Both the position numbers and the translations under genes were made by a program. Below the pieces are notes generated by a model. It saw only the letters and a program-made list of their open reading frames with translations, was not told where the DNA came from and made no database searches. This document shows positions 20,895-61,024 of a DNA stretch of 64,000 nucleotides, piece after piece (positions within the stretch are counted from its first letter, which is position 1; the number at the start of each line of letters is the position of its first letter). This DNA comes from a virus (lineage: Duplodnaviria; Caudoviricetes): the IMG/VR virus record IMGVR_UViG_3300017913_001781, positions 32,001 through 96,000 of that record; one strand, written 5' to 3'.

Positions 20895-23800
20895 ATGGCA
20901 GCTGATGCAATATTTTTTATCAAGAGTATACAACTTTACTATAAAGAACACGATGGTTTAAGTTTATTCCAGGGAGATGCAGATCAACTTCCTACGTCAG
21001 TTGGTCCATTAACCTTTTACTACACGGTTGAGGCAGATCAAGATATACAGCCAGGTGATAATAACTGTGGTATAAATTATTTTACTAGACCAGGCTTCTT
21101 TCAACATCCGGGCGGTGTTTTAGAATTACCTTCGCCTCTTGATGCTGATCTTAGCACAGGCGGTCCAGGTTGTTCAAATCCCAGATGGAGTATAGCTCAA
21201 ATTGCGCCGCTAGGTATAAAGCTTTATTCTGATAATCAACTTCAAAATGAAGCAGCTCCCGGTAAGTACAGCGCTAATCCCTTTCCTGTAACTAATTTTG
21301 ATCCTGCCGATAATGAAGACTCTATAGTTTATAGCTATGATCCTCCGGCTAGCGTAACTCTACATAACACAAATTATATTTGGGAGACATACTCGTTTAC
21401 TAACTTTGAGGGAGACGAAGTTAATGCGCTACAAACTAGATTAATTAGTCCTGTAAATCCAGTATTAGTAAACTTTACAGGTACTGCTGGGCAAGTTTAT
21501 CGTAAGGTCCTTGGAGTTCAAGGAGATTCTCCTTGTAATTTTTCTACAGGGGCCATACCTGCCTTTAATGTAAGTTATTTCCCAACAGAAGAAGTACCGG
21601 CCGGTGCTACGTTAGCTGAAATAGCAGCAGGCGGTATACCTTTAATGGATTCTAATGGAGATATATTCACATTTGGTTACTTCTCCGATCAACAATTTCC
21701 TAGTACCTCTAATGATGTAAATATTTATAAAGCGGACGGCTTGATAAATGACTATATTGTTAATTGGCAAGCGTCAGTATGTACTCAAGTTGTTGCACCT
21801 AACGAAACTGTTAGAGAATTTACTGTAGATTTTGCAAATGAAGTAGAAGCTGTAGAATTTAATTCTAATCAATTTGGAGATTTTGTAGAAAATAGTTTAT
21901 TTTGTTCAAATGCACAACCTTTAAGGGTATTTTATACAAATAACAATACAGAGTATGATACGTTTTTTGATTTAGTAGTAGCTAATGAACCAATATATGT
22001 TACTCCTAATACTTTACCTAGTAATATTGTTCCTGAATATTGGCAACTTATTAATGCGCCTGAAGGTTCATATGGTGTAACTCTTAATAGTTATTTTTTC
22101 TATATTTTAGAAGAAATAGACAATAATTTATCAGCGGGGTTTGACGGACCTGGATGGTATCGTATTTACCCAGGCTCTAATAATATAACTTTTTATGTGC
22201 CAGCGGGACTAGGTGCAGCCGATTCAAGCGGATTTAATTGTGCTTTACCTGGCAGAGATTCTAACAATATCAAAACTATAACTCTTAATTATTCTAATAG
22301 TCAACAAGGTTATTGTGAAATTAATAGTAGTAATTTATCTAATAATCAAGTTACATGTCAATACTACAGCATAAATGGACAAGATCTGACATTAAATGAA
22401 ATTATACAAAATCAAATTTATCTATACAAAGATTCTTTAGAATATGCGGCTTACTATCAAATAGATGATCTACTATTTACATCTGGCTATTTTGGAGATG
22501 AATTTGGTTTTTATTACAATTTTAATTCAAATATTGCTGAAGAAGGCGGTAACCCATGGAGAGGTAGAGAGTTTATAACTATAAGCGATAGTTATAGTTC
22601 TCCGTTTATGTGTACTGGTAATGGAACAGAAATTAGATCTTTTGATGATTTAATTTATGTTTCCGGCATTTGGACTCAAATTTACCCCGATTATGATTTT
22701 TCAGATGAATTTTGTTATAGACAAAAGCAATCGTATTATGTGGTATATTATAGGACACATACTGAATCACCAGAGTTTACTTTAGATGAAATTGTTCAGC
22801 GAGATATACCATTATATAGAACTCCTACAGAACTTACTAATGGTCAATCTTTAAAAACTGGAGCATATTCTAGCGATACTGATTATTACTATAAATGGGT
22901 TGCAAACGAAGATGAAACTGGAGGACATTGGATGGGTTTAAATTCTAGTCAAACAGAATCTCAAGCATTTATAACTAATTCTATTCAATGTAATTTACAA
23001 CCAGTTCCCAATTACTTTGACACTTTAAATGACAACACATTAACCGAAAACTCAGGGGCTGATTATCTATTAGCATTTTATGTTTTTAGCTCTTGTATTC
23101 CAGTTAATGGCCAATATACACACTACTTATTATTCGGAGAACATACTAATTTACCTGATGACAATACAAGTTATATGTCGGAATTTACCGATGTAATAGG
23201 CTTTAATTCTGCGTTTTATAGTTTAGGATCTACTGATTTAAATTATGGCTGTAAGAAATATGTAGGTAAGATATTTGCGTCTTCTCCATCACAGGCCGAA
23301 GAGTTAATGTCATCGCAATTAGATTATTTCCAGGGAGATATTCAATTTGTTAGTCCAAGCGCAATAGGTTTATTTAGCGAAGAGTTAATACTATGGTATC
23401 CAAATGGATGCAATGATTGTCTTAATCAATTAGATTTTCCCGGACTTCCGGAGAGGTTAGATAAATTTGATGACGGCGGTCAAATTGAAGACTTAGCCCC
23501 TAGATTTGGTTTAGAACAAAACTATAATCTGCATAATAATTCCAAGCCACTTCTTAGAACTAACCCTAGACTAACAGGTAATATTAAGTTAGTTACTGAT
23601 TCTAGAGGCGAAATATACTTAGAATCAATAAATGCAAATAAAGATCTTTCGGATTCTCGTTATAAAAGATATGGAGTAAGTTCAGAAAGCGACTATTCAT
23701 ATGATGTTTCTAGATTTTTTAATGATAATAAAACGCCATATGACATGGTTTATGAGACAAAGAGAAGAGCGTCTGATCTTTCAGTCTTAGAGTCATATGA

Positions 23801-26800
23801 TTTGCAATTTGAAGAAGATTATCAATATGGTACTAGGTTTAACAATTCTAAGTTATATGATGAAAACTTTAGAATATTTGCTCCTATCCAAATAGACACG
23901 AATATACCTAAAACGTTTGTTATTTATAGAGTTAATTCTCCTAAACCAAATGTAAACTATGGGGATTTAGGTGCTGATAAGCAAGATAGAATTAAATCTG
24001 TGCTAGCTAATGCAACTATAATTAAGACGTTTGATTTAAGTGAATCTTCTAAATTAGGTAAATATATTAGACGTCATGTTTATAATGAATTTTTTCAAGA
24101 TAGCCAACTAACAGTTTCCTTTGAGAAGAATGAACAGACATTCTTTAAGGGAATAGATTTAGTAAAAGGAGGATTCTCAAGTAAAGGCGAATTTATCTAC
24201 AAGGATTTTGTAGCTACTGATAAACCTTTGATAGAAGCTAACGACTTTATTACAGATGGATTTAAGAGAAACAGAATAGTATCTTCTAATATTTTAAATC
24301 TAGAATTTATGTTTGATGATGAGGAAGCTAGTGAATATTCTGTAAGTCGTTATTTTGGATTATTTGTAGATGAAATACCTTCAGGTAAAGGTAAGATTCA
24401 AAGAGTTAATTCAGGCTTAATTAAGTTTAAAGACTTAACATCTTTTATGCATTACAATGATAGTGGTTCTAGTTCTTCGTTGATTGATGGTAATACATTT
24501 GCTATACCTTCTAGTCAAATGATGAGAGATATTCCTGTTTTAGGTTACGTAAAGTGCGATACACACTACCATAATATTAAAAACGGAAGCGAGTGGAGTG
24601 CTGAAAATTATACGTTAAAAATTAATGATAACGGGGATGATATTAATAGGTTTACAGGCATTAAAGATACTTTAACCACCGTAGAACTAGAAGAAAACGC
24701 GGGAGTAGGATATGATTTTGTTAAACTATCTGTTGTTGATATACCATTTAATGGGGATTCTATATCGGTAATAGAAAATAAAAGACAATCATATTGCATA
24801 AGAGTAATTAACCACGTCCCTGGTTCCAATATGACGATAACTGCATCGTATCCAACTCAAACTACTGTGCAAATAAGTTCTGGTGCTACCAAAGAGGAGG
24901 CTTTAGATAATTTAGAAAATCAGTTATCTATATCTGGTCTATCGGTAGAAAGAGAAGGCGATGTTATTTTCGTAAAAGAAGTGCATGCTTATTTTAATGA
25001 CATTAATTTAGAAGTTTCTTCATCTAACCCAGCTCAAGTTATTAAAGTTGAGAAGAACTATACTAGTTCTAATTTACTTGAAAATTTAATTACGGCTAAT
25101 TCAGCAATTGACAAAGGAAGATGTACTGATAGAGAATTTTCTAATCAAGGTAATATTAAAGATGTAGTTGTAGCATTGGCCGGCGCGATATCTAAACAAG
25201 AAGGCATCCAAACTATTGTCAATAATAAAGACATATATGTTTACTCAAATAGAAATATAGGTTACGCTAGATATCAGCACGCTATATTAGTAAGTAAGTC
25301 TAATGTAGTTGATTTTGTTTCTTCTTTAAATACAGACGAGTCTAATGATTTAAAAATTGCACAAGCCGTTTTAAACGATTGGAACGCATACTATTTAATA
25401 GGAGGCCATTCTGACGGTAGATCTGTACTAATATCTAACGATTCAATCGGCGGTTTAAATATAGGAGATTACATAGATAGCAAAAAAACTGCAGGTTATA
25501 ATAAAGTTTTAGACATAGTAGAAAACCTAGAAGACGTTACTTCTAATTATAGTAAAGTTGTATTAACCACTAGACATGATTTAGGTAAAGGAGAGTTTAA
25601 AGTATTTAGAGAGTTTGAAGCAGAAATAGGATTATTTTCAGCCTATGATATTTATGATATGAATTTTGATTTTTATGATACTTCTAATTCAGATCTTAAA
25701 GAACTTAAGTATGAGACTTATCAAAATACAAACTATACTCCGGCGAATCAAGCCATATTTAATGCTGAAGAGGGCCAAGAGGAAGAAGCTTTAGACGGCA
25801 TAATAGATCCAGATTATATTAAAGATCCTGCACTTTTCTTTGCAGGTTTAAATCCTATTCTATATCCTGAAACACCAGAAGAGCAAGTCATCTCTAAAAT
25901 AGATTCAGAATATGACCGATTACAAGAAAATGGTCTAAAAGAATTTGCAGTTGAATCTAGAGTGGTTCCAAATATTAACAAGTGGGTTTTAAAAGATGCT
26001 AAGACAGTTAGAGACAATCCATATTATTTAAATGTAAATGAGGCTTTTGGTAGAACCAATTTCTCACCCGATATTACAGTAGAAGGTAAAGATCCAAAGT
26101 CATTTACACACGAATGGTTCTATATTGTTAATAAGCCCGACTATCTAAAACATTTTATGTTGAATGATACTTTTAGTTATATTAATTATATCTCAGGATT
26201 TGAACTAACCAAAGACATGTTTAAATCAATAGAAGAAGATTATTTTACCAACTTTATGGTAAGTGATGGATTTGATGTTAGCATAGATCCTGACGAACAG
26301 CAAATTTACGTTGTTACTATTTCTGAGGATTCAAATAATGGCTATGTTGTTTACATAAATGGAGAAGCTGGTTCTACGTTAAATATGATTACAAATAATA
26401 CGTACTATTTTGATCTAAGTAATGTAGATCCTGCTCTATTTTCTATCGAAGACTCAGTGGGAATGTATCAACAAGAAAATATAGGAGGTATAGAATTTGG
26501 AGTTTATACACCTGATACATATGGATTTTTTGAGTTTACATATGGTTCATCTCAGGGTGGCAATATTTCAGTATCTAATCAAGACTTTAATAAATTTGAA
26601 GCTTTTGTAAAAACTAATAGAAACATTAAATATTCTATAGGTAATGGAGGAAATGATAGATCTTTTGCTTCTACTATATTTAAGGGTTTGAAATTTGAAT
26701 TTAAGAATAGAAAGGAGTTTGATAAGATTAAGCCATCTGAATTTTTAAAGGATGGAACTTTTAATGATTATAAGTTTTCTACGGTAGTTGATTATAAAAC

Positions 26801-28661
26801 CGGTCAAAATAGAAACTCAATCGATTATGAAGTCATTAAAAACGATGCTTTTAAATTTATTATTTTCTATATAACAGTTAATTTAGATGAAGATTATGTA
26901 GGAAATACATTAAATAGAAAGCTTTCATACCTTCTTTCAAATCAGTTAAATTTACAAGAAGATGGTGAATACGATGTTGATGACGTTAGAATATCCGGTG
27001 CTTTAGATTTAAGTAACATTGATTCTAATTCTCCAGGACCATATATCGTTAATGGTATAACTCATTTTGACGGTTCAGAACCCAATTTCTTAACACAAAT
27101 ATCTCCAAACTCTGATAACACATACGGACCCCTTAGTATAGATTATCAAATACTAGACGAGGACGGTAATCCTTTAATTTATCAAATACAAATAGTCAGT
27201 GTTATTTCAGATTCTCAATTGGTTATTGAAGGTTTACCGTTTAATGAAAACGGTGAAACTATAGATCCGGTCTATTTGCCACTTTCTTTACAAGAATTTG
27301 CTGAATATGTATATATGGGAGGTGGAGTAAATAATCATAGCTTACTACTAAATAACATATCGATTAACAATATAGTTAATTTAATTAATGAAAATGATCC
27401 TTCTATAAAATATACAACAGTTACCAAAGAGGGAGAAATTCAATCTAATAGATTTGTTATGTCTATTGATGATGGTAATGAAATAGTAAGAGCATCTAAT
27501 TTAATAGCGGCGGCAGATAACAATAAACCTAAAAGCTATTCTTTATTTAACGGAACTATAGGATATGAATTACAGACAAGAAATTCATACTATCCATTCT
27601 TAATTAGACATTCTGGCAATTACGTATGTGATTTAAAACCAGTAGTAACATTTACTGATGTCTACTCTCATTTTAAAGTTAATAGAAACTATGCAAAGAA
27701 TTCTTTCTTAGAAGAAAGAAACTTTAAAGATAAGTTCTATAGACACCCGTCTTCATATATTGACGAAAGCTTTTATAAAAGGGTTCATAGAGCTGAGTCT
27801 TATTATATCAAATACAATAGAACTAATGTCGCATTTAATCTTGGATTTATATCTGATGATGGTAGGCATGATTCAAATTGGGGAATGATAAAAAATCACT
27901 TTTATCACAAAGTAAACGAAGATAATTCAACAGGAGTTACAAAATTAAGTGAAAGTGGTGAAGCCTCTCCACTTTATCCTCTCATAGGGGAAATAGCGAT
28001 TGATAAACGAGACGTAAACGTATTTAGGTCTTCTTGGGAGGATGATTATTATAGAACCGCATTAGCTGGAGGGGAATCTTCTTCTTCGCCTGGAACTTTC
28101 TCTACTAAAGAGTCTAGATCTTATTTGTCTTCTACTGTGATGAAACTTAGAGAATCATATACTCTAACTTCATTTACTACTCAAAACGCAGGTACCTTTG
28201 AGAACTTAGATTTAATATTAAAGAATAATTCTCATGAAGCTAATGTGGTATTTGCTGAAGATTCAGAAAGAGTGTACATTGATTTTTATATGACAGATTT
28301 AATATCAGATGTTCTTTCTGTATCTGGCGTTGCTAATGAAATTCAAAAATATGTAGATGCTGCATCTTCATTCCAAGATAAAACAGATTTAACTGATGAC
28401 GTCAAGTCATATGTTAATACTAATTTAGTCAATTTATTTACAGTAGATGAAGTAGAAATATATACTAGACGATCGCAAAGCGAGTCTACATCTATTAATC
28501 CAGTTGAATCATTAGATCTTATAGATAACGGTGGATTTAAATTAGACATAAATTACACTATTAACCAACATGCTCAAAGGCCTATCAATTTTAGATTGAT
28601 ATATAATAAGAGCCAGGGATACTCTTATATTATAAGACCTATGATAAAAATAAAGCAATAA
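20895..28661 (+). CDS. Giant virion/tail-associated protein with N-terminal repeat region
   Basis: 2588 aa uninterrupted ORF; GATATATA upstream. Confidence 0.65.
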   Translation: MAADAIFFIKSIQLYYKEHDGLSLFQGDADQLPTSVGPLTFYYTVEADQDIQPGDNNCGINYFTRPGFFQHPGGVLELPSPLDADLSTGGPGCSNPRWSIAQIAPLGIKLYSDNQLQNEAAPGKYSANPFPVTNFDPADNEDSIVYSYDPPASVTLHNTNYIWETYSFTNFEGDEVNALQTRLISPVNPVLVNFTGTAGQVYRKVLGVQGDSPCNFSTGAIPAFNVSYFPTEEVPAGATLAEIAAGGIPLMDSNGDIFTFGYFSDQQFPSTSNDVNIYKADGLINDYIVNWQASVCTQVVAPNETVREFTVDFANEVEAVEFNSNQFGDFVENSLFCSNAQPLRVFYTNNNTEYDTFFDLVVANEPIYVTPNTLPSNIVPEYWQLINAPEGSYGVTLNSYFFYILEEIDNNLSAGFDGPGWYRIYPGSNNITFYVPAGLGAADSSGFNCALPGRDSNNIKTITLNYSNSQQGYCEINSSNLSNNQVTCQYYSINGQDLTLNEIIQNQIYLYKDSLEYAAYYQIDDLLFTSGYFGDEFGFYYNFNSNIAEEGGNPWRGREFITISDSYSSPFMCTGNGTEIRSFDDLIYVSGIWTQIYPDYDFSDEFCYRQKQSYYVVYYRTHTESPEFTLDEIVQRDIPLYRTPTELTNGQSLKTGAYSSDTDYYYKWVANEDETGGHWMGLNSSQTESQAFITNSIQCNLQPVPNYFDTLNDNTLTENSGADYLLAFYVFSSCIPVNGQYTHYLLFGEHTNLPDDNTSYMSEFTDVIGFNSAFYSLGSTDLNYGCKKYVGKIFASSPSQAEELMSSQLDYFQGDIQFVSPSAIGLFSEELILWYPNGCNDCLNQLDFPGLPERLDKFDDGGQIEDLAPRFGLEQNYNLHNNSKPLLRTNPRLTGNIKLVTDSRGEIYLESINANKDLSDSRYKRYGVSSESDYSYDVSRFFNDNKTPYDMVYETKRRASDLSVLESYDLQFEEDYQYGTRFNNSKLYDENFRIFAPIQIDTNIPKTFVIYRVNSPKPNVNYGDLGADKQDRIKSVLANATIIKTFDLSESSKLGKYIRRHVYNEFFQDSQLTVSFEKNEQTFFKGIDLVKGGFSSKGEFIYKDFVATDKPLIEANDFITDGFKRNRIVSSNILNLEFMFDDEEASEYSVSRYFGLFVDEIPSGKGKIQRVNSGLIKFKDLTSFMHYNDSGSSSSLIDGNTFAIPSSQMMRDIPVLGYVKCDTHYHNIKNGSEWSAENYTLKINDNGDDINRFTGIKDTLTTVELEENAGVGYDFVKLSVVDIPFNGDSISVIENKRQSYCIRVINHVPGSNMTITASYPTQTTVQISSGATKEEALDNLENQLSISGLSVEREGDVIFVKEVHAYFNDINLEVSSSNPAQVIKVEKNYTSSNLLENLITANSAIDKGRCTDREFSNQGNIKDVVVALAGAISKQEGIQTIVNNKDIYVYSNRNIGYARYQHAILVSKSNVVDFVSSLNTDESNDLKIAQAVLNDWNAYYLIGGHSDGRSVLISNDSIGGLNIGDYIDSKKTAGYNKVLDIVENLEDVTSNYSKVVLTTRHDLGKGEFKVFREFEAEIGLFSAYDIYDMNFDFYDTSNSDLKELKYETYQNTNYTPANQAIFNAEEGQEEEALDGIIDPDYIKDPALFFAGLNPILYPETPEEQVISKIDSEYDRLQENGLKEFAVESRVVPNINKWVLKDAKTVRDNPYYLNVNEAFGRTNFSPDITVEGKDPKSFTHEWFYIVNKPDYLKHFMLNDTFSYINYISGFELTKDMFKSIEEDYFTNFMVSDGFDVSIDPDEQQIYVVTISEDSNNGYVVYINGEAGSTLNMITNNTYYFDLSNVDPALFSIEDSVGMYQQENIGGIEFGVYTPDTYGFFEFTYGSSQGGNISVSNQDFNKFEAFVKTNRNIKYSIGNGGNDRSFASTIFKGLKFEFKNRKEFDKIKPSEFLKDGTFNDYKFSTVVDYKTGQNRNSIDYEVIKNDAFKFIIFYITVNLDEDYVGNTLNRKLSYLLSNQLNLQEDGEYDVDDVRISGALDLSNIDSNSPGPYIVNGITHFDGSEPNFLTQISPNSDNTYGPLSIDYQILDEDGNPLIYQIQIVSVISDSQLVIEGLPFNENGETIDPVYLPLSLQEFAEYVYMGGGVNNHSLLLNNISINNIVNLINENDPSIKYTTVTKEGEIQSNRFVMSIDDGNEIVRASNLIAAADNNKPKSYSLFNGTIGYELQTRNSYYPFLIRHSGNYVCDLKPVVTFTDVYSHFKVNRNYAKNSFLEERNFKDKFYRHPSSYIDESFYKRVHRAESYYIKYNRTNVAFNLGFISDDGRHDSNWGMIKNHFYHKVNEDNSTGVTKLSESGEASPLYPLIGEIAIDKRDVNVFRSSWEDDYYRTALAGGESSSSPGTFSTKESRSYLSSTVMKLRESYTLTSFTTQNAGTFENLDLILKNNSHEANVVFAEDSERVYIDFYMTDLISDVLSVSGVANEIQKYVDAASSFQDKTDLTDDVKSYVNTNLVNLFTVDEVEIYTRRSQSESTSINPVESLDLIDNGGFKLDINYTINQHAQRPINFRLIYNKSQGYSYIIRPMIKIKQ

Positions 28662-31635: not shown

Positions 31636-33722
31636 TGGCTCAGTCATCTAGATACTTTAGAATAGACGATGATGTATTGTTAGAGTTTATTTACCACGAT
31701 CAAGGCAACCCAGATGCACATTATATTGAGGTTGACGATAATGGTAGCGAGATAAAGAAACTAACAGTAAATCCTAACGACCCGTATACTGAGCACATTA
31801 ATCACCTAATTTGTGAGCTTGGTAGTCAAGTAGTTAACTTTGATGTGACTGTAGCCGGAGCATATCTTTCTGTTGAGAATTTTGCTGGAAGAACTCTTCT
31901 ACTCGAGGCTGGAAAAACATATAAGTTTAACTTAAGTGCTTTACCAGATCCTAGTTTATTTACTATTGATTCAAATTATGGAACATATAGCCTAAGTAGC
32001 GTAGGCATTGGTACATTTATACCTACAATTTATGGAACTATAAACTATAGCTATCCAGGATTAACAGGAGGTAAAATTGTTATAGCTGATAAGGCAAATC
32101 CTTTATTTTCTACGCCAGATGAAGATACCGGAAATGACATAAATCATTTAATCGGTAGATTTCATGCAATACCTCATGTAGATGATAATGTCAAATATGC
32201 TCTTTTAGGATATGATGTTGATGGTCTTTACGATCAACCTTTAAAATATATCAACTCTTATCCAGGTTGGAATGGATCTAACGAAGCTGATTTGCTTTCA
32301 TCACAAACTGATGCTAATGCTATTAATCGTATTTACTATGATGATATTAGACTTCATTTAAGATCTGGTTTTTCTTTTGCATCTAGAGGATATGAAGGAT
32401 TTTTATTCGAGGTTAAGACTGAAAGAGATAATGGTATTAAAAATTATTTAACTCAACTAGTTTACTTAAATCAAAGTAACTACGAGGTTTCTAATCCTAA
32501 GCCATTCCTATTAGGCGAAACTTTATTTACTAAGTTTGTAAATTTAAAGATTCCAACCCTTGTTAATCAAAATTTTGAATTTGAAGATTTCTTCTACGGT
32601 AACGGAGTCATTGAGCCTGTTTCTAACCAAACTTCTAACCTAAACCCTACATCTAATTATGAGATTAGCTTTAAGCTTATTGATAGATTAGAAAATATAG
32701 ACGGTTATAATTATTTCTATACGGCTGAAGTAAATACGTTTAGCGTAAGTAGAGAAGATGAATATACTGATTTTACAGTAGTTGTAGAAGAAGCAGAAGA
32801 TGGAGATTACTTTGAAATTTATGGAGAAAAAGACAATGATGCTGCTGCATTCGAAGGCTACATAACTAATAGAATTAATACATCAACGGATGACATTATT
32901 GTAATGTATGAAGTAGAAGTTTACGAGCAAGTTGGTATTTCTCAAATTAAAACATTCGATACAACATTTACACAAGTTGTTGATTTTGATACTCCAATTA
33001 CATTTAGACCTGTTATTATAAATGGCAATGTAGCTGTTAACTTTTCTATTGATGTAACTATGAGAATAGTTAACGAAACTGATAATACGCAGATAGTTAA
33101 AAGAGCGAGCGTTACATTTGACAGAGCCGCTAAATATGCTAAGCGTATGCAATCTGTTAAGATTAATTCTGCTACTAGATTGACAGAAGTATTTAATACA
33201 TTACCTAATTTATCAGCTAATAGAGCGGTTAAGGGTCTTATCAATAATTCATTACCCAAATCAACTAGATATGTACCCGCTTTTGTAGAGACGACAAACA
33301 TTGTTGCAGCTAATGTGCCGGTTAATATTACTAGTAATACCAATGCTGATTTACCACCAGATGAAGTAGAGGATCTAGAGACTCCAAAATATAAGTCAAG
33401 CGGCGATGTTACAATATATGTACCTCCGTTTACAACCTATTATAAATTCTATATCGCTAAAAAGAATGGAGATGATTTAGATCAACTTTCTTTAACAGGT
33501 GCTGATGATATAGTACTTTCGTTTGAAGATGGAGGTACTAAGAAGGTATTTAATCATCAAAGGAGTAAAGACATAGACTTAGGTAAAGGAGAAGTTCTAT
33601 TCAAAGTAGACGAAGCTAACGCTAGTGCAATTAGAGGTATGCAAAATAAACAATTCTATATTTCTTCTAAGAGTGGATCCGACAATACTGTGATTGCCCA
33701 CGGAAAATTTACCATTGAATAA
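31635..33722 (+). CDS. Putative virion structural protein
   Basis: 695 aa; shares a beta-sandwich module with two other structural ORFs. Confidence 0.6.
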   Translation: MAQSSRYFRIDDDVLLEFIYHDQGNPDAHYIEVDDNGSEIKKLTVNPNDPYTEHINHLICELGSQVVNFDVTVAGAYLSVENFAGRTLLLEAGKTYKFNLSALPDPSLFTIDSNYGTYSLSSVGIGTFIPTIYGTINYSYPGLTGGKIVIADKANPLFSTPDEDTGNDINHLIGRFHAIPHVDDNVKYALLGYDVDGLYDQPLKYINSYPGWNGSNEADLLSSQTDANAINRIYYDDIRLHLRSGFSFASRGYEGFLFEVKTERDNGIKNYLTQLVYLNQSNYEVSNPKPFLLGETLFTKFVNLKIPTLVNQNFEFEDFFYGNGVIEPVSNQTSNLNPTSNYEISFKLIDRLENIDGYNYFYTAEVNTFSVSREDEYTDFTVVVEEAEDGDYFEIYGEKDNDAAAFEGYITNRINTSTDDIIVMYEVEVYEQVGISQIKTFDTTFTQVVDFDTPITFRPVIINGNVAVNFSIDVTMRIVNETDNTQIVKRASVTFDRAAKYAKRMQSVKINSATRLTEVFNTLPNLSANRAVKGLINNSLPKSTRYVPAFVETTNIVAANVPVNITSNTNADLPPDEVEDLETPKYKSSGDVTIYVPPFTTYYKFYIAKKNGDDLDQLSLTGADDIVLSFEDGGTKKVFNHQRSKDIDLGKGEVLFKVDEANASAIRGMQNKQFYISSKSGSDNTVIAHGKFTIE

Positions 33723-34283: not shown

Positions 34284-34652
34284 ATGAAAACATTTTTAGA
34301 ATATCTAAACGAGCAAGACATTTCAGAAAAAGATCTTCTTATTTTAAACGAAGGTCTTCAAAGCGAGTGGACCGATGAATTAGAAGCTAAAGTCGATGAA
34401 GCTATAAATGCATTTGCGTCTGAATACATGCTAGAAGACGGAACTTATGATATCGATAGATTCAATGAAGAAATGACCAATGAAGGTATATTGGGTAGTA
34501 TTATAGGTGGTCTTACTGGTTTTGCTCTAGGTAAATCAGTTGGTAAATTAATAGCTAAAGTTTTAGGTGTACAAAAGGGTGTATTATATGACCTTCTGAC
34601 TTCAAGATTAGTTGGCGCAGCTTTAGGAGCTTCTCTGGGAAAAAGATTTTAA
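34284..34652 (+). CDS. Putative capsid-internal protein: acidic pro-region plus glycine-zipper amphipathic C-terminus
   Basis: Starts MKTFLEYLNE (like the T4 capsid targeting sequence); C-terminus GILGSIIGGLTGFALG... Confidence 0.55.
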   Translation: MKTFLEYLNEQDISEKDLLILNEGLQSEWTDELEAKVDEAINAFASEYMLEDGTYDIDRFNEEMTNEGILGSIIGGLTGFALGKSVGKLIAKVLGVQKGVLYDLLTSRLVGAALGASLGKRF

Positions 34653-41771: not shown

Positions 41772-43612
41772 TGGCACTTCAAGATCTAAGAAAACATTTT
41801 AATTCAGTTAATAGAAACGAGTTTATGGCTTTGTTAAAGCAAAGATGCTTGGTTACTGAAAAAATTCAAGCTTCTTCCTTTCATGTTAGAAATACAGATA
41901 AAGGCTATGACTACTATAAAAGCGGTTCTAAAACACCTATGAATAGGGTTGATAGAACAATAGTTAGGTATTATGAAAGTGCTATTGACTATTTTAGATC
42001 TATTCCTAAAGAAGTTAGAGAAGATATGCCAAAGGATTGGAAATTTGGTTTTGATTACATGACTGAAAAAAGAACAGTTGATATTCAATACGATGCTCTT
42101 CCCAAAAACAATCTTATATTAACACATATTCAAGTTTTAAATCCAACTGACCCAACTCAAATTAAGAAAGTAATTAGAGACCCTAAAGTTCTTGAAAAAT
42201 GGTCTAATATGTTACAAGTTCAGGCTCCTCCTATATTATTCAACGGAGTTTTAGATTCTAATCAAAAAGACATGTTAGTTGAGCTTTTAGAAATGAATAA
42301 TGAATCATTTAAGAACGTATTTGAAAATACTTCCTTTACTAGAAAGGTCTATAGTATTTTTAATCACATGGCAAATAAGACCGCTCTCAATGAAGGTTTA
42401 GATGGAGATATAGATTCGCTTATAGTTTCTTTTATAGACAAAAAGAATATTAAGAACTTTAAACTTGGTAGATTTGATAAAGTTGAAGAAAAAGAAAGAG
42501 AAGCTTCCGACATGTATCAAATTACTATTCTAGATCTTGTCGAGTATATGACTCAGTTCAATATGGATGATGTAAAATTGGTAGAAGAAGATACAGACTT
42601 AAGATACATTGAGCTAGTTTCAGAGATATTTAATCAATATATGTCTAAGAACGCCGTCAAGTATATAGGCGCTGAGTTTGATTCGGCGGGTTTTTCTAGT
42701 AGAAAGGGATTTGAACTCAATAAAGACTTTATCAAAAACGAAGGCACGGTAAAGCTAATTCAAAACGAAGATTTATCGGAATTATTTAAGATTATGTTGG
42801 GATCATTTAGAAAAAAAAGAACAAAAGAAACCAAGATCATAAATGCCGACCTTATGTCTCAAATGAACGAAATTGTAGAAAAGATAGAGTCCGCCGTCTT
42901 TGCAAAAAAGAATGAATCAGAGATTATGACATTTAATACTTACTTAAAGCAAGAAAAGCTAAAAACCCAAGTTAGTCCAATTATTGAAGCGCTAACAGTC
43001 GAACATCCTGATCAGGGGGCAAAGCCGGTTAATATGTTTGTTGGTAGATTCCAACCTTTTACATTAGGACACGCTAAAGTTATAGACGCTATTCATAAAC
43101 AAAACGGTTATCCCGTTGTTATTTTCTTAGTTAAGTCAAAGACTAAGAAAAAAGAGGATGCATTTAAAAGACCCTATTCTGAAGAACTACAAATTGAAAT
43201 GTTGGAAAAACTAAAAAAGAAGTATCCAATTGAAGAGGTATTTGTTATACCTTCTGCAGCCATCGACAAAATGTTTAATGAAATGAGACCTAAATATGAA
43301 CCGGTTCTTTGGGGAACTGGAACTGATAGATTAAAGGTTTATAGCTATCAAGTAGATAAGCAAGAATATAGAGATGATTTAGGCGTCAGAGATGATTTTG
43401 GACTGTTCGAGATACCAAGAACTGGTAAGAATATTTCAGCAACTCAAGTTAGAAATGCAATGTTAGCTGGAGATGAAAAAGAGTTTAAGAAGCTAACACC
43501 GAGGGAGATTCATTCGATGTATTTAAAACTTAAAGATACGTTAGAGCAATCAATGGCAACAATGGAGTCCACGTCAAACATTATGACTTTCAATCAGTTC
43601 TTAAAATCCTAA
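41771..43612 (+). CDS. Degenerate ligase-fold domain fused to an HxGH-class nucleotidyltransferase (cytidylyl/NMN-adenylyltransferase-like)
   Basis: N-terminal 'TEKIQAS'; C-terminal 'GRFQPFTLGH', 'GTDR', 'ISATQVR'. Confidence 0.75.
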   Translation: MALQDLRKHFNSVNRNEFMALLKQRCLVTEKIQASSFHVRNTDKGYDYYKSGSKTPMNRVDRTIVRYYESAIDYFRSIPKEVREDMPKDWKFGFDYMTEKRTVDIQYDALPKNNLILTHIQVLNPTDPTQIKKVIRDPKVLEKWSNMLQVQAPPILFNGVLDSNQKDMLVELLEMNNESFKNVFENTSFTRKVYSIFNHMANKTALNEGLDGDIDSLIVSFIDKKNIKNFKLGRFDKVEEKEREASDMYQITILDLVEYMTQFNMDDVKLVEEDTDLRYIELVSEIFNQYMSKNAVKYIGAEFDSAGFSSRKGFELNKDFIKNEGTVKLIQNEDLSELFKIMLGSFRKKRTKETKIINADLMSQMNEIVEKIESAVFAKKNESEIMTFNTYLKQEKLKTQVSPIIEALTVEHPDQGAKPVNMFVGRFQPFTLGHAKVIDAIHKQNGYPVVIFLVKSKTKKKEDAFKRPYSEELQIEMLEKLKKKYPIEEVFVIPSAAIDKMFNEMRPKYEPVLWGTGTDRLKVYSYQVDKQEYRDDLGVRDDFGLFEIPRTGKNISATQVRNAMLAGDEKEFKKLTPREIHSMYLKLKDTLEQSMATMESTSNIMTFNQFLKS

Positions 43613-43643
43613 TATATAGAAAAAGAAAATAAACTACATAAAT

Positions 43644-46139
43644 ATGAAATTCCAAGATTTCCTAAATGAAAAGAAAGTAACGTTAAAGAGACGTTACACT
43701 GAAAATCATCCAGCGATGGAAGCTGGTTTAACGGCAAGAGTCAGAAACAAAATGATAGAAGCGGTTGCTGATGGCACGTTAACTCAAGAAGAGTTTAATT
43801 CTATTTTATCTGAATTAAGCAATGATTCTAAAAGATGGATGACCAGAAATGCAAAATACTTTAATGTATCAGAAGACGGTATCACATTATCTAGATTTGG
43901 TAAAAGAGTTCTTAAAACATTTGCAATTAATGAAAATGAAGGCTTTATTTTAGAATCTACGCGTTCTCAAATTGGTATCATTGATAGAAGAGGCGTTATT
44001 CACTCTACATATGTTCATAGCGATGGTTATCCAGAAGGTGTAGGCCAAATGGCAAAAGATCATTTTTCTGACACTAAAAAGATGAAAGAACTATTAAAAC
44101 TTGGAAAGAATGGTATTTCATATTTAGAGCCTGGTATTGAAGGTGGTGAAGGACACCACTTTAATACACCAATCGATGGTCAAACAGTATTTTATGGTAG
44201 AGATAGAGGCGAAACTAAATACAATATGACTCAAAAAAGAAAGTTAGAAGATCTAGATGATTATCTACAAGATGTTGCCTTTGATGGTGCAGAATATGTT
44301 TATCTTTGGGATGAAAAAGAAAAAGAGTGGAAGTACGCAGTTGCTAAAACTAAAGACGGTAGACAAATGGGTCTTCAAGTCCTAGAGTCTGAGTTAATAG
44401 AAGATGATGTTATAGAAGAAGGTAAATATGAAGATATGTTAGATAAAGGAGATGGACATATTCACTTTATTTTAAAGGATGAAAAGACTGCTGAAAAATT
44501 AGCTGATAAAATTGAAGAGGAAGGTTTAGGTGATTGTGATTTTTATCCTCAAGGTAAAAAGATTTACTTAAGAGTTTCTTTAACAGGGCAGGAAAATAAA
44601 GCAAATTCTAATATACCTAAGATAGAAAAGATTGTAGGTATGAAAGCTAAGTCTGGCTCACCAGAAACATGGGATGGTTCTATGTTGGGTGAAGGTAGAA
44701 ACGCATTTATTACTGCAGCTAGAGCAGCTAAAGCAGAAGGTTTAAAAGAATTTGAATTTAAGGGTAAAACCTTTCCGGTTACAGTAAAAGATGTAAGTGA
44801 GGAAGCTCCCGAAGTAGAAGAAACAAAAGAAGTTACAGAAAATAAATTAGTCTCAGAATCATTTGGAAAGTTTATTGCTTCTCTAAATGAAGAAAATGTT
44901 AATGAATGGGGAACTTCTGATAGCTATGCTATGAGTGAAGTAATTCACTATATGATTAGAAAGCCTAAAAACATGCCATCTCCGTTTGATAAAAAACTAA
45001 GAGATGCGGCTGAAAGTGCAGTTGATAGATATTGGGATGAGTGGCCTGAATACAAAACCAATTATGAAGGTTTAGTAGACGACGCCGTTAGAACTTATTT
45101 AAGACATTTTCATAGAGAAGAGTTTAAATTGGCCCAAAGAATGTTTGAGCCAGTAGAGTCAAATTCTATTGAAGTAGGAGAGGACGTTAACGAGGCATTT
45201 AAGTCAGCCAAATTAGCTCAACTTTTTAATACTAAAATATCTCGCAGTTGGTCTTCTAGCTCATTAAAGGACTTACCTAAAGCTTTTTATAACATGGCTA
45301 ATATTGCTTTAGATAAAGTAGAGGATGAAGATATAATTGATATGAGTGCAGCTGAAGCGCATGCTATAACTAGAAAGGACAAAGATAATCGCTATGTTAT
45401 ATTTTACGTAGTAGATCAACAAAAAGAAAATCCGCATGCTGGTTACGAAGGGCAAAAAACTATCCCAGCTGGTATTTTGGCTATTGTTAAGGGTAATCAA
45501 TTTCAAGGCATGGCATGGGGCCGTAATTCATCCGGCCACGGCCGAACTTTAGCATCTAGCGAACCTGGTGATAGCGTAGGTATTAGTAAAAAGTATAAAG
45601 GCTGGGATTCAACGGGCCTTTACAATCCTAAGAGAATTTCAGAGGTTGCAGATAGAGCAGTTGTCTTAGATACTGCGGTACTTAGAGATAAGTATTCAAC
45701 TGCTGGAAAGATGGCTGATAGAGCAGCCGCTAAGAAAGGTGCAATCGCTTTTAAATCAGATAAAGATTTCAAAAGAGAAAATATGAAGCGATATAAAGAG
45801 ATCTTAGCAGACAAAGCAGCTAACTTACCTCTAGATAAAATGGTTAAGGACGCGGTAGATGCTTTAACTTTACAAATTCAACAGGGTCTAGCTAAAGGTG
45901 AAGTCGAAAATGGAGAGCCCTTAATCGGTAGAAATTCAAAGGGTAGAGCAGTAAAAATGAGAGACGCCGCTAATCATATGTCTCAGATTTTAGATAATTA
46001 CTCAAACTATGTGAGATATTCTAATGAAGCTCAAAGCGGTCTTATTGGATCTAGCTATTACGAAACAAGAGTTAAGGACGAAGCCAAGCTTATCAAAGAC
46101 AGAATTGATAAAATTGAAAATATGGACTATGCCTGGTAA
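43644..46139 (+). CDS. Multi-domain putative capsid-internal polyprotein
   Basis: Starts MKFQDFLNE; modules separated by acidic [ILV]-x-E linkers; contains a 'STRSQIG...YVHSDGYPEGVG' domain. Confidence 0.6.
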   Translation: MKFQDFLNEKKVTLKRRYTENHPAMEAGLTARVRNKMIEAVADGTLTQEEFNSILSELSNDSKRWMTRNAKYFNVSEDGITLSRFGKRVLKTFAINENEGFILESTRSQIGIIDRRGVIHSTYVHSDGYPEGVGQMAKDHFSDTKKMKELLKLGKNGISYLEPGIEGGEGHHFNTPIDGQTVFYGRDRGETKYNMTQKRKLEDLDDYLQDVAFDGAEYVYLWDEKEKEWKYAVAKTKDGRQMGLQVLESELIEDDVIEEGKYEDMLDKGDGHIHFILKDEKTAEKLADKIEEEGLGDCDFYPQGKKIYLRVSLTGQENKANSNIPKIEKIVGMKAKSGSPETWDGSMLGEGRNAFITAARAAKAEGLKEFEFKGKTFPVTVKDVSEEAPEVEETKEVTENKLVSESFGKFIASLNEENVNEWGTSDSYAMSEVIHYMIRKPKNMPSPFDKKLRDAAESAVDRYWDEWPEYKTNYEGLVDDAVRTYLRHFHREEFKLAQRMFEPVESNSIEVGEDVNEAFKSAKLAQLFNTKISRSWSSSSLKDLPKAFYNMANIALDKVEDEDIIDMSAAEAHAITRKDKDNRYVIFYVVDQQKENPHAGYEGQKTIPAGILAIVKGNQFQGMAWGRNSSGHGRTLASSEPGDSVGISKKYKGWDSTGLYNPKRISEVADRAVVLDTAVLRDKYSTAGKMADRAAAKKGAIAFKSDKDFKRENMKRYKEILADKAANLPLDKMVKDAVDALTLQIQQGLAKGEVENGEPLIGRNSKGRAVKMRDAANHMSQILDNYSNYVRYSNEAQSGLIGSSYYETRVKDEAKLIKDRIDKIENMDYAW

Positions 46140-46201: not shown

Positions 46202-47371
46202 ATGCCCGCTCTTAGTAAAGTACAACAAAGATTAATGGGAATGGCTTACGCTTATAAGAAGGGTGAGCTTGACTCTAAAGATGCTAGTCAAGAGGTTAAA
46301 GATCTCGCAGATTCTATGACTCTTAAGCAGCTTAAGAAATTTGCTGCAACTAAACACGAAGGTTTACCAGAAAGAGTACCTGAAAATATTCAAGCCGGTC
46401 AAATTAATGGCATGGGTCCAATACAATTACCCGCTGACGGTTTACTTGGATCTGGAGATGTACCTGCTGGTAGGGGCGACGCAGAAGAAGAATATAAAAA
46501 AAAGAAAAAGAAGATGGCAAACTTCGAAGAATTTATAAATGGGTTAAATACTCAACCCAAATCAGGTGTTAATGAAACTAGATTTTACGCAATATTTCAA
46601 GGCGCAAAGCATGAAATTGAAGCAGATAGTCTATGGGCTGCAAAGCAAAAGGCTATCACAGATCTAAAGGTCAAAAAGAAAGATGTTGGATTATTGGCGA
46701 TTGTAAATGCAGACGAACATGATGATTTTTCTAAGGGAAAGAAGGGACAATTCCAATTTGAGTCTGATCAAGTCGACGAAGTTTATACCGGAACCGCATC
46801 TGATTTTAAATATGAATTTCCAAACCAATTTGAAGATGTCACGGGTTTTTCTGATAAAGCCATTAAAGGTATTAGAAAGAAAGGTAAAAATGGCTACGAA
46901 GTTAGAACTTCTACATATGCCGGTAAAGAATATATGGAAGCTGTTGGTAAACAAATGGGTCTAGAACTTAAAAAGTTTGAGAAGCATAGTAATATGTGCA
47001 TCACTGTTTATGAATCTGTTATCTCTGAAATCAGAACGTCTAGTTGGGGAGATTTAGAATATACAGAAGAAGATGTCAATAAAACTCACGGATGGTGTGG
47101 CACTTTAGCTAACGAATTAGGTGAAGATAAAGCTATGTTTTTAACTCATCAAGGAATTCATGACCTTCAAAAAAGACACATGGGTTTAACAGCTTGGGAA
47201 GCTTTAGCTGTTCTTAATTCAAAAGCAGGTAGACATGCGGCTGAAGCCTTTTTAGGAGGAGAAGCTGCCGCATCTGATACTACTTCAGCATTGATTTGGT
47301 ACTTTGGTAGTAAAAGAAAGGTACAGCAAGCTGCTAAAGAAGAAGCAGAGCTTCAATTTCCAAGTAAGTAA
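46202..47371 (+). CDS. Multi-domain putative capsid-internal polyprotein with DUF3008-like N-terminus
   Basis: 'MPALSKVQQRLMGMA..KKGE...LKKFAATKHEGLPERV'; internal MANFEEFIN; modules after VNE, VDE and ISE. Confidence 0.6.
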   Translation: MPALSKVQQRLMGMAYAYKKGELDSKDASQEVKDLADSMTLKQLKKFAATKHEGLPERVPENIQAGQINGMGPIQLPADGLLGSGDVPAGRGDAEEEYKKKKKKMANFEEFINGLNTQPKSGVNETRFYAIFQGAKHEIEADSLWAAKQKAITDLKVKKKDVGLLAIVNADEHDDFSKGKKGQFQFESDQVDEVYTGTASDFKYEFPNQFEDVTGFSDKAIKGIRKKGKNGYEVRTSTYAGKEYMEAVGKQMGLELKKFEKHSNMCITVYESVISEIRTSSWGDLEYTEEDVNKTHGWCGTLANELGEDKAMFLTHQGIHDLQKRHMGLTAWEALAVLNSKAGRHAAEAFLGGEAAASDTTSALIWYFGSKRKVQQAAKEEAELQFPSK

Positions 47372-53742: not shown

Positions 53743-54207
53743 ATGGCAAACTCAGATAATAAATGTGCAGATCTAGAAGTACAAGACTTCTACACTGACG
53801 TAAAAGACACGCTCGGCCTTGTATATAACAAACAGATCGAGCTACAAAGCAGACTCGGATTTAACTTCGAGAATTGGACCCTTAAAGAAATTGCAGATTT
53901 CTGGTGTGTTAACAAACATGCTATGAGCGATGAACTTAACGAAATGTTCGATGCTCTTGGTGGAGTTAATGATGGTATTGCTTCAGCAGCATGGAAATAC
54001 TGGAAAAAAGACAATGCTAAAGCGGCTACTATGACAGTAGCTGACCTTTCTAAAGAAGATCGCCTCGAACTATTTTACGAGTGGATCGATGGTCTTCACT
54101 TCTACATGAATTTTGCTATTTCAATTGGCATGACAGCAGAAGATATAGTAAACCTCTACATGGCTAAGAACGCAGAGAATCACGATCGCCAAAACCGAGG
54201 ATACTAA
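53743..54207 (+). CDS. Dimeric all-alpha dUTPase/dCTPase (T4 gp56-like)
   Basis: 'DELNEM', 'WKYWK', 'EWIDGLHF', 'YMAKNAENHDRQNRGY'. Confidence 0.85.
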   Translation: MANSDNKCADLEVQDFYTDVKDTLGLVYNKQIELQSRLGFNFENWTLKEIADFWCVNKHAMSDELNEMFDALGGVNDGIASAAWKYWKKDNAKAATMTVADLSKEDRLELFYEWIDGLHFYMNFAISIGMTAEDIVNLYMAKNAENHDRQNRGY

Positions 54208-55634
54208 TGCTACTTGATATTGAACAAAGAGAAAATGAGCTTATTGTAAGCTACTATAATCGAGAAGGTAAAGTTGATTTCAAGAGATATCCTATTTCTC
54301 AATTTGAGAATTGGGTTGTCACAGATGAAAAAGATCGCTACAAGCATCCACAGATCCTAAATTGGGATGGTCGACCTGTTAAAAAGAATCGTTCACGTTC
54401 TTATAATAAGTTTTCACTGATCTACTTTATGGATAATCTTCCAGAAAAGGATCGAGAAGAAATCTTTGAGTTTAATGTACCTCGTACTTATTATGTAGAT
54501 ATTGAGACTGAGATTGTAGATGGTTTTCCTAAACCAGAGGAAGCTAAATCTAGGATCCTCACGTTCTCTATAATCACACCCGAAAGAAAGGCTATTGTAC
54601 TAGGTCTAGAAGATCTTTCGGCTGAACAGATTGCTTCTATTGAGAAGGACACTAACGATCACTTTGAAGGTTATGATCAAGATTGGGAGTTTAGCTATTA
54701 TAAGTTTAAGAATGAGTACGAGATGCTCTATAACTTCTTGCATAAGTTCTTGCCTAAGTTTCCTATGATGACAGGCTGGAACTTCATCAACTATGACTGG
54801 CAATATATCGTTAATCGATGTAAGCATTTGCAAATCGATTTGACTGAAGTAGCTATCACCGGTTCGCTTGATCGTAATGATAGTCGACCACTTCATATGG
54901 GTATTCTAGACTATATGCAATTATACGATAAGTATGATCGCTCGGTTAAAGTAAAAGAGTCTAATACACTTGATTATGTTTCTGGTCAAGTTCTTAATGT
55001 TAAGAAGATTAAGTATCAGGGTGGTCTACAAGATCTATACGAGAATGACTTTAAGAAATATGTTTTCTATAACGTAGTTGACTCTATTCTTGTTTATTAT
55101 ATTGATGAGAAGCTAAAAAGCATGGAGGTCTTGTTAACGCTTGCTACTATTACAAAAATGCCTCTTTATAAAGCAGCTTCTCCTGTGGCTATGACAGAAG
55201 CTTTGATTGCTCGTAAATTGGTTGAGCAAAATAAACGAGTTGGCGTTGAATACGATAAAGCAGATAGTCAAAAAGACGGTAAGTATGCTGGCGCATTTGT
55301 TAAAGAGCCTATTTCTGGTTATTATAGCGGAGTTAGTGCTTTTGACTTCGCCTCACTGTATCCCTCTATTATGAGACAGTTTAATATTTCACCTGACTCA
55401 TATGTCGAAATGATACCTACTACACAGATAAATAGTCGTCGAAAGGATGAAAGTGTCATTGTGTGCGAAAACGGAGTTGTTTATGAAAAAGAAGACTCAA
55501 TTCTGAAGAAGATTCTCTCTGATCTTTATGCTCAACGTAAACAATATAAGAAAACTTCGTACGATTATTATGAAAAGGCAAGAGAGCTGAAAAAAAAATT
55601 AAATGAGAAAAAAGTCGGAGAGTCAGCTGCCTAA
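54207..55634 (+). CDS. Family B DNA polymerase, N-terminal subunit (3'-5' exonuclease and motif A)
   Basis: ExoI 'DIETE', ExoII 'GWNFINYDW', ExoIII 'YNVVD', motif A 'FDFASLYPSIM'; ends in the fingers helix. Confidence 0.93.
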   Translation: MLLDIEQRENELIVSYYNREGKVDFKRYPISQFENWVVTDEKDRYKHPQILNWDGRPVKKNRSRSYNKFSLIYFMDNLPEKDREEIFEFNVPRTYYVDIETEIVDGFPKPEEAKSRILTFSIITPERKAIVLGLEDLSAEQIASIEKDTNDHFEGYDQDWEFSYYKFKNEYEMLYNFLHKFLPKFPMMTGWNFINYDWQYIVNRCKHLQIDLTEVAITGSLDRNDSRPLHMGILDYMQLYDKYDRSVKVKESNTLDYVSGQVLNVKKIKYQGGLQDLYENDFKKYVFYNVVDSILVYYIDEKLKSMEVLLTLATITKMPLYKAASPVAMTEALIARKLVEQNKRVGVEYDKADSQKDGKYAGAFVKEPISGYYSGVSAFDFASLYPSIMRQFNISPDSYVEMIPTTQINSRRKDESVIVCENGVVYEKEDSILKKILSDLYAQRKQYKKTSYDYYEKARELKKKLNEKKVGESAA

Positions 55635-59818: not shown

Positions 59819-61024
59819 ATGAATGTAGAACTACTAGAAGAAAAAGCGATTGAAGAGCTTTCTCCTGATGAGGGGAAAGCTCTCGTCGCACATTATGAGC
59901 AGCTAGCTGCTAAATATACGGCATATGAACAGGCTGTAAAACTTTCTTTGAATAGTATTTATGGAGCATTTGGTAATAAATGGTTTCACTTCTTTGATAT
60001 TAATATCGCAGAATCCATTACTTTACAAGGTCAAAATGCAATTCTTTATTCTGAAACTATACTCAATAAGTATTTTCACGATTTCTTTTATAAAGATAAA
60101 CCAGTACACGATCACTTAAACATAAGCGTTAGATATAAATTGGAAAGACCTTCAGTTATCTACATTGATACTGATTCGTGTTATGTCCAATTTGAAGAAA
60201 TGTATAATTCAATTGATTGGCACGGAGATAAGCTTACAATTGATGAGTTTATTTTAGAAATATATGATTTTAGACTTAGGGATTACATCGTTAAGTGTAT
60301 GGAAAAATACGCTAAGCTAAGAAATACTGATAATTTTCTTGCATTTGAATTAGAGACTATTGCTTACAATGGTATTTGGATGAGTAAGAAGAAGTACATT
60401 CAAAACATTGCATGGGACGATAAGCTTGAAACAACAGATCGACATCCTTCTCTTAAAAAGGTCAAAACAATCGGTTTTGATACTATTCAATCGTCAACTC
60501 CTAAGTTTGCTCGTGAAAAGTTGGTTGAAGCACTTAAGATTCTATTTAAGAAACAAGATAAGCCTTCGCCAGAAGATCTACAGGAGTTGGTTCAATTCAT
60601 GAAAGAAACCAAAAAGCAATTTAAGCTTTGTAATGTCGATGATATTTCATTCAATAAAAGAACTAACAATATTGACAAGTATATCGTTGATGATCAAATC
60701 GAGCTTCAGTTTGGCCTAAAGTGTCCGCCAAACGTAAAAGCTGCAGGTTACTACAACTATTTGCTTAATCAAAATAAAAAGTACAAGAATAAGTATCGCT
60801 TGATTGGTAATGGTGAAAAACTTAAGATTTATCACTGTGCTGATACAGCATTGAGCGATATGTTCTCATATTTACCGGGAGATTATCCTTATGAGTTTGC
60901 TCCACCTGTTGATTACGATGTGCAATTTGAAAAGTGCATGATTGATCCACTTAATAGAGTACTTAAGGCTATTGGTCTTCAAAAATTGGACACTAACCTA
61001 ATTTACGCAACAGCACTATTTTAA
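59819..61024 (+). CDS. Family B DNA polymerase, C-terminal subunit (motifs B and C, thumb)
   Basis: 'KLSLNSIYGAFGN', 'ITLQGQ', 'YIDTDS', 'KKKY', 'SSTP'; C-terminal clamp-binding-like 'ALF'. Confidence 0.93.
   Translation: MNVELLEEKAIEELSPDEGKALVAHYEQLAAKYTAYEQAVKLSLNSIYGAFGNKWFHFFDINIAESITLQGQNAILYSETILNKYFHDFFYKDKPVHDHLNISVRYKLERPSVIYIDTDSCYVQFEEMYNSIDWHGDKLTIDEFILEIYDFRLRDYIVKCMEKYAKLRNTDNFLAFELETIAYNGIWMSKKKYIQNIAWDDKLETTDRHPSLKKVKTIGFDTIQSSTPKFAREKLVEALKILFKKQDKPSPEDLQELVQFMKETKKQFKLCNVDDISFNKRTNNIDKYIVDDQIELQFGLKCPPNVKAAGYYNYLLNQNKKYKNKYRLIGNGEKLKIYHCADTALSDMFSYLPGDYPYEFAPPVDYDVQFEKCMIDPLNRVLKAIGLQKLDTNLIYATALF

Follow-up and report, generated by a model that had tools for sequence, protein, structure and literature searches.

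The capsid-targeting sequence (CTS) of phage T4 and the processing of the proteins that carry it by the prohead protease gp21 are textbook knowledge, and the system is used in biotechnology for packaging foreign proteins. To our knowledge, it is known solely in the form of one leader per cargo. The gene described here lies on the plus strand at positions 43644-46139 of the window, a stretch of 64,000 nucleotides that spans positions 32,001 to 96,000 of the IMG/VR virus record IMGVR_UViG_3300017913_001781 (Duplodnaviria; Caudoviricetes). It is an open reading frame (ORF) encoding 831 amino acids, and we conclude that it probably encodes a polyprotein precursor of capsid-internal cargo in the T4 style. 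We infer its cleavage, packaging and ejection, as well as every module function. The CTS/gp21 system is described in PMC3012670, PMC9026906 and PMC5694885. In the CTS of T4 IPIII, residues 4 and 7 control targeting and residues 8 and 10 control processing, and replacing the Glu at the cleavage site with Asp stops processing while targeting is unaffected (PMC9026906); gp21 cuts Alt at ITE-6 and LTE-619 (PMC5694885). For another class, the polyvalent proteins, an analogy to the polyproteins of RNA viruses has been drawn (PMC5512222). In open-access full text, we found no description of a prohead-protease-processed phage polyprotein architecture such as the one proposed here.

Modules and their junctions

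A search of 5.8 billion proteins, with 8,000 candidates scored, returned 263 relatives at E <= 0.001, which span 467 to 994 amino acids among the 120 matches listed. A further 80 IMG/VR loci encode polyproteins of 330-956 amino acids, and 285 unique metagenomic sequences were pooled for the junction counts. Local alignments to these relatives split the protein into six segments, namely A (residues 10-97), B (105-248), C (260-350), D (351-386), E (422-513) and F (518-831). The original prediction of an 831-residue protein with about six modules bounded by [LIV]xE motifs was thus borne out, and all the motifs it listed are present: LNE at residues 7-9, INE at 95-97, ILE at 102-104, VLE at 246-248, IEE at 257-259, LGE at 348-350, LNE at 414-416, and VNE at 419-421 and 515-517.

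The protein opens with MKFQDFLNE (residues 1-9; 43644..43670, plus strand, as are all features of this map), a CTS-like putative propeptide ending in LNE. Module A (43671..43934), which is found in nearly all relatives and is basic with an isoelectric point (pI) of 9.8, is separated by the spacer NEGFILE (residues 98-104; 43935..43955), flanked by the candidate sites INE97 and ILE104, from module B (43956..44387), a phrog_1987 family member with the N-terminus STRSQIG. An acidic spacer (residues 249-259; 44388..44420; pI 4.05) with overlapping LIE, VIE and IEE motifs precedes the optional module C (44421..44693), which has LGE at its C-terminus. Module D (44694..44801) is short and basic (pI 9.4), reads GRNAF...FPV and occurs in 1-2 copies in relatives. 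It is followed by an acidic linker with VEE, VTE and VSE sites (residues 387-405; 44802..44858) and by the internal CTS-like peptide SFGKFIASLNE plus ENVNE (residues 406-421; 44859..44906), which matches the leader of stand-alone module F proteins. Module E, starting WGTSD, extends to residue 517 when its trailing VGE/VNE sites are counted in (residues 422-517; 44907..45194), and the universal C-terminal module F (45195..46136) is basic (pI 9.3). After the predicted cuts, the constant modules A and F (and D) would be basic and the spacers acidic, with a pI of about 4; the internal proteins of T4 have likewise been described as basic (PMC9026906).

Modules A and F are almost universal in the family, while B, C, D and E are present or absent depending on the relative, and in some other relatives unrelated modules replace B-E. 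The order also varies: P0038-P0041 place module E first, behind a short MSNKLIKE leader, with A internal. Module C occurs only in close relatives, others of which are without residues 262-349 and have the acidic spacer joined straight to module D, and P0054 carries tandem copies of module D. Module swapping among relatives, as had been predicted, therefore takes the form of deletion, insertion and reordering, and a fixed architecture is not what these proteins share. The six modules are distributed independently and in variable order, which corresponds to the several unrelated domains in mosaic architectures that characterize polyvalent proteins.

The start of a module is preceded by [LIVM]xE in 457 of the 459 cases that have upstream sequence, counting a motif within +/-2 residues of the module start, for which the background is 2.5% per position. 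The linker glutamates are thus conserved, in line with the original prediction. By module, the motif was found at 156/158 junctions of A (69 distinct upstream 12-mers), 71/71 of B (43), 7/7 of C (3), 33/33 of D (21), 28/28 of E (12) and 162/162 of F (86). Position P3 is L, I or V, P2 is free (N, T, G, Q, E, H, F, A and others) and P1 is Glu; P1' is small or specific to the module, being A/S for F, S/G/A for B and G for C and D. In relatives, ESVV[NT]E is a frequent reading of the junction, and two or three redundant sites at one junction are common. The pattern matches the specificity that has been reported for T4 gp21 (PMC5694885).

The whole-protein excess of the motif is weak evidence, with 21 [LIV]xE in the 831 residues against 13.8 +/- 3.2 in shuffles (z ~2.2); it is the placement that counts. 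In the 81 linker residues of the protein there are 16 [LIVM]xE motifs, and in the 750 module residues there are 9; module F, with its 314 residues, holds one and module B none. Across the families, B domains that are leader-borne or part of a polyprotein contain on average 0.59 internal motifs, where their own composition would give 1.21, and 33 of 71 are free of them. Leaderless B domains have a mean of 1.92, about three times as many, and only 7 of 74 lack the motif altogether. Internal motifs are also depleted in the module F family (2.15 vs 3.21 expected).

Module B allows the junction to be compared with the start of a free protein. Positions 2-122 of the 128 in the phrog_1987 profile align to residues 105-239 (E = 6.2e-20), which makes this a full-length family match, and 126 short homologues of the module were found. 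Among 145 unique B-family matches that reach the domain start, 74 consist of M plus the domain ([SA]TRS) and 71 are extended N-terminally. In all 71, [LIV]xE stands exactly before S/G/A-T-R at the end of the extension, which is either a leader of 15-40 residues or an upstream module; the leaders end in [LIV][NT]E directly before [SGA]TR. Free-standing B proteins are encoded by the cultured Yersinia phage fHe-Yen9-03 (g357, MSTRSNINV...) and Caulobacter phage CcrPW (gp089c, MATRSNVAV...). Because stand-alone B proteins start with M-STRS and the extensions end in [LIV]xE at the boundary, cleavage would recreate the N-terminus of the free protein. In the protein studied here, STRSQIG directly follows ILE, with S105 beginning at nucleotide 43956, and a cut at ILE104 would yield the N-terminus that the stand-alone gene product has after Met removal. 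The original prediction had named a stand-alone family starting M-[SA]-T-R-S and had proposed that cleavage exposes the same N-terminus; the family is real, and the 71 extended forms agree with the proposal.

Module B has the same invariant residues as phrog_1987 (T2, Y19, H21, G24, S55, Y80, D83, Y116 and W125), but most members of that family are free-standing genes of ~120-190 codons, whereas module B is embedded in a polyprotein. Within the module, T2 is invariant and R3 nearly so. In the AlphaFold 2 model (predicted local distance difference test, pLDDT, 94.8), the first beta-strand runs from residue 4. An Ntn-hydrolase-like role, with an N-terminal nucleophile, was considered for module B and rejected, as residue 1 varies between S, G and A and the conserved positions are T2 and R3.

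Searches for function and fold returned little. For the complete protein (P0001), Pfam gave only sub-threshold matches to DUF4168 and DUF6323, and a PDB sequence search gave no meaningful match (best E 0.031); nothing significant was found with Pfam on 10 architecturally diverse relatives, nor with NCBIfam on P0001 and relatives (4 scanned). These Pfam and NCBIfam scans detected no catalogued effector or peptidase domain of the kind found in polyvalent proteins, although remote homologues could have escaped them. The model of module F (pLDDT 84.8) had no Foldseek match in PDB or BFVD, and VIA-align gave only generic helical-bundle matches for it (residues 184-314, Z <= 9). The model of module B matched no solved-structure chain at Z >= 5. 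In the ESM Atlas, there was no match for F and there were only unnamed viral clusters for B.

The next ORF (window 46202-47371, plus strand; 389 amino acids) is a second mosaic. Its residues 107-195 (VNE|TRFYAIFQ...) are a module that is embedded in the homologues of the 831-residue protein in other phages, residues 287-379 correspond to the module that other family members have at the N-terminus, and its own N-terminus matches several small PHROGs.

Leaders, linkers and gene fusion

The leader MKFQDFLNE corresponds to MKTYQEFIAE of T4 IPIII and IPII (T4 record NC_000866) at the aromatic and I/L-x-E positions. The protein thus has the MKTYQEFIAE-like N-terminus of a T4-type CTS, and its end, [LI]-x-E (LNE in this protein), is conserved in relatives. 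Of 156 family members, 92 have a leader of the form M..F..[LIVM]xE. In the genome itself, at least 10 further ORFs begin with a T4 CTS-like leader, M..[FY]..F[LIV]xE; ORFs with this leader pattern start in the window at 34284 and 40482, besides 43644, and outside it at C1:3237, 10668, 11312, 19719, 22872, 100195, 106816, 109162 and 111357. The carriers of CTS-like leaders include the two small genes that flank the protease gene described below; these two start MKYLRLFEQFIKE and MKYVKLFEQFLIAE.

Module F, a family of 175 clusters at 50% identity, is invariably C-terminal. In many distant relatives it stands alone as a protein of 300-390 amino acids, always behind a leader of 15-45 residues, the last [LIVM]xE of which adjoins the start of F. 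In the minimal stand-alone forms (L028-L031), F follows directly upon MKHKFLFE|SFEEFTESLNE|. The same element, [LIVM]xE|[SNT]FxxF...[LIVM]xE, is present as one internal copy in 121 of 156 family members and in none of the shuffled controls, and the copy in the 831-residue protein is VSE|SFGKFIASLNE| (residues 403-416). The leader of stand-alone F is thus the internal linker of the polyproteins. This supports the earlier proposal that stand-alone genes were recruited into the polyprotein, and the polyproteins have the appearance of leader-bearing genes fused in frame. Stand-alone module A is almost absent; there were two short matches, possibly fragments.

A second leader type, MKKSEL.KLIREE...LNE, is common to stand-alone proteins of the B and F families. 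The leader is thus a portable unit, and since these two stand-alone families are unrelated, metagenomic phages may have targeting propeptides of more than one portable class. The pattern MK..[ST]..L..[IL]I[RK]EE...[LIV]xE was seen in P0135, P0148 and P0150 (B family) and in P0296, P0338 and P0348 (F family).

The identity of leader and linker shows that the junctions derive from leaders, and it also fits a reading without any cleavage, in which the gene encodes a multidomain polyvalent protein, packaged or not, that remains one chain and whose junctions are inert leader relics of the fused genes. Intact delivery of multidomain phage proteins is known for the N4 virion RNA polymerase and for ArdC (PMC5512222). 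Relics are expected to decay, however, whereas P3 and P1 are kept at nearly every junction while P2 and the flanks vary freely. The depletion of internal motifs from B domains in leader or polyprotein contexts and the frequent presence of two or three redundant sites at a junction also speak against relics, and we regard the uncleaved chain as unlikely.

Genome setting, head genes and prohead protease

The source record is a 122,950-base fragment of an uncultivated T4-like jumbo phage, estimated to be ~41% complete, of which the window is a part. All genes are on a single coding strand and the GC content is ~35%. The head module lies outside the window in the same record and has the T4 gene order: a gp20-like portal, a 112-residue protein, an S77 protein, a 138-residue protein and the major capsid protein. 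The Peptidase_S77 (T4 gp21) domain was identified with PF03420 at 48.8 bits (cut-off 27; G000:C1:107279-107626) inside a 649-residue ORF, so that the gp21-family prohead protease that goes with a T4-type CTS is encoded in the same genome. S77 is also encoded in all eight related records of >100 kb with an F-module gene, among them a complete 256-kb genome with terminal repeats.

The S77 ORF (G000:C1:107213-109162, or L002:7213-9162) is long; its relatives have 602-782 amino acids, and T4 gp21 has 212 by the annotated coordinates of the T4 record. The long C-terminal extension is possibly a fused scaffold. The major capsid protein has an N-terminus (L002:9703-9822) reading MQKINEAEIR...IIEE, akin to the T4 gp24 propeptide MAKINELLRE, which could mean that the capsid propeptide is very short, with a cut at INE or IEE. 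Its nearest relatives belong to uncultured huge phages, Prevotella Lak megaphages, and Tenacibaculum, Chryseobacterium, Flavobacterium and Sphingomonas phages; since these are mostly phages of Bacteroidota, a Bacteroidota host is hinted at.

In the 123-kb record, the plus strand has 36 copies of the motif [GA]ATATATA, 23 of them 12-45 nucleotides upstream of an ORF start. The ORFs behind it include the portal, protease, baseplate and leader-bearing genes and none of the replication genes examined. Upstream of the 831-residue protein, it reads AATATATA (43611..43618, plus strand), 33 nucleotides 5' of the start codon, and 36 of 42 distinct homologous loci have it 17-42 nucleotides upstream. Before virion and leader-bearing genes its distance is 12 or about 25-37 nucleotides. 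We regard the motif as a candidate late promoter of the clade; it differs from the T4 late-promoter word TATAAATA, which showed no enrichment (11 matches vs 12 expected).

Within the window, baseplate and tail genes lie at 9-31 kb, and there are T4-like replication genes for a gp32-like single-stranded-DNA-binding protein, primase, helicases, a split family-B DNA polymerase, NrdAB and UvsX. The polymerase is encoded in two ORFs ~4 kb apart (window 54207-55634 and 59819-61024), separated by nrdB, nrdA and a 249-residue ORF. The tail and baseplate region contains a 2588-residue ORF (window 20895-28661, plus strand) preceded by a GATATATA motif.

The vicinity of the protease bears on a second alternative, that of a scaffold or core assembly protein which is chopped and largely expelled like T4 gp22, gp67 and gp68 rather than delivered to the host. 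Many cleavage motifs, including the conserved ones inside module A, would be in keeping with such a protein, as would the same leader type on the small proteins beside the protease gene, and T4 IPIII itself influences head assembly (PMC9026906). Against this, modules B and F are compact, confidently folded in their models and depleted of internal sites, B is also an ordinary leaderless stand-alone phage gene, shuffled and variable cargo content is atypical of scaffolds, and the gene is far from the capsid genes. We therefore give a scaffold a small probability, similar to that of an uncleaved chain.

Extensive module shuffling and the recurrent ESVV[NT]E consensus would also be explained if the junctions were mainly recombination or linker elements, serving in-frame module exchange or as flexible acidic linkers, with no proteolysis. 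What is conserved, however, is an amino-acid pattern (L/I/V at P3, any residue at P2, invariant E at P1) and no fixed nucleotide word, and the same pattern ends the leaders of single-domain proteins, where an exchange junction is unnecessary. As the pattern also agrees with the known specificity of gp21 (PMC5694885), this explanation appears very improbable. Equally improbable is cleavage outside the capsid by a different host or phage protease, giving several cytoplasmic proteins per ORF: cutting after Glu is not exclusive to S77 enzymes and the neighbourhood of the gene is one of replication genes, but the N-terminal leader matches the T4 CTS and is found on the small proteins beside the protease gene, the promoter-like motif is common to virion genes and not to replication genes, and S77 co-occurs in 8/8 large records.

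Proposed processing and comparison with known systems

We propose that the precursor of ~94 kDa, probably expressed alongside the virion genes, would dock to the prohead core through the CTS-like leader MKFQDFLNE and possibly also through the SFGKFIASLNE peptide and the basic module A. The gp21-type (S77) prohead protease would then cut after the Glu of the [LIV]-x-E motifs clustered in every linker, giving module B with the N-terminus STRS as well as C, D, E and F; the predicted new N-termini are K10, S105, G260, G351, W422 and A518. Module A would be freed whole or cut further at its internal sites, and the short acidic spacers would be thrown away. The freed proteins would remain in the head with the DNA and probably be ejected into the host. 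Such precursors would have originated from leader-bearing stand-alone genes fused in frame, with the old leaders surviving as linkers.

Several observations weigh against this proposal. The compared sequences are related to one another, so that the junction counts are not counts of independent events, and some relatives begin with a module and have no evident leader (MATVTMDAMDPK...). The promoter-like motif is a sequence correlation only. The neighbours of the gene are replication and nucleotide-metabolism genes, with the head module elsewhere, and no module F was found in cultured phages when P0001 and two distant F relatives were compared with 50,697 phage records by tblastn. Module A is an exception to the depletion of internal sites, with ~3 conserved internal [LIV]xE vs 1.35 expected, and because it keeps these three, the motif alone is no proof of cleavage. 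Module A could serve as a long targeting propeptide and be cut into pieces in its turn.

The chances seem to us evenly balanced that a beads-on-a-string cargo system of this kind is widespread among uncultivated jumbo phages with kinship to phages of Bacteroidota. In such a system, any gene with a T4-type cleavable leader could be fused in frame to an A+F carrier, and the former leader would become a linker cut by the protease. Changeable cargo would thereby enter the capsid at fixed 1:1 stoichiometry from a single late gene and be injected into the host. The ~175 sequence clusters suggest that the CTS/gp21 chemistry of T4 extends to multi-cargo polyproteins with exchangeable modules. If so, any [LIV]xE-bounded module in an S77-encoding phage would be a candidate packaged protein with a predictable mature N-terminus, and the modules would make up a set of proteins that are likely to be injected and may act in early host takeover or counter-defence. 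This set includes the well-folded phrog_1987, which has no solved-structure match. The system would also be a natural template for loading several proteins into phage heads at fixed ratios.

Polyvalent proteins (Iyer et al. 2017, PMC5512222) resemble this family in their many unrelated domains per polypeptide, their rapid shuffling and their proposed co-delivery with DNA. They differ in that their release is attributed to embedded peptidase domains and in being a class defined by a catalogue of known effector domains (PMC5512222), whereas here we propose release in trans, with the prohead protease cutting at regularly placed [LIV]xE junctions. In the giant phages phiKZ, 201phi2-1 and SPN3US, head and ejection proteins are processed by a related, gp21-like prohead protease (S80), which cuts after the Glu of a three-residue motif, often with several sites per precursor; phiKZ gp175 has been obtained in recombinant form (PMC5694885). 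Their motif is A/S/G-x-E, and the extra sites are mostly inside discarded propeptides; the two SPN3US papers that were searched for such terms (PMC5694885 and PMC10052503) contain no description of shuffled, independently occurring domains arranged in a string.

The closest likeness is to T4 IPI, IPII, IPIII and Alt. These share with the protein described here a short leader, M-K-x-[YF]-Q-[ED]-F-[IL]-x-E, and an S77 cut after the Glu of [LI]xE, which is predicted in our case. In both systems diverse, poorly conserved cargo stands behind a conserved leader and the genes are scattered away from the head cluster, and the constant modules here are basic. None of the modules is homologous to any T4 internal protein. 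A T4 gene of this kind encodes a single cargo that is trimmed at its ends only (Alt at both), whereas here up to ~10 shuffled cargo modules share one ORF, each bounded by candidate sites, with the old leader kept internally.

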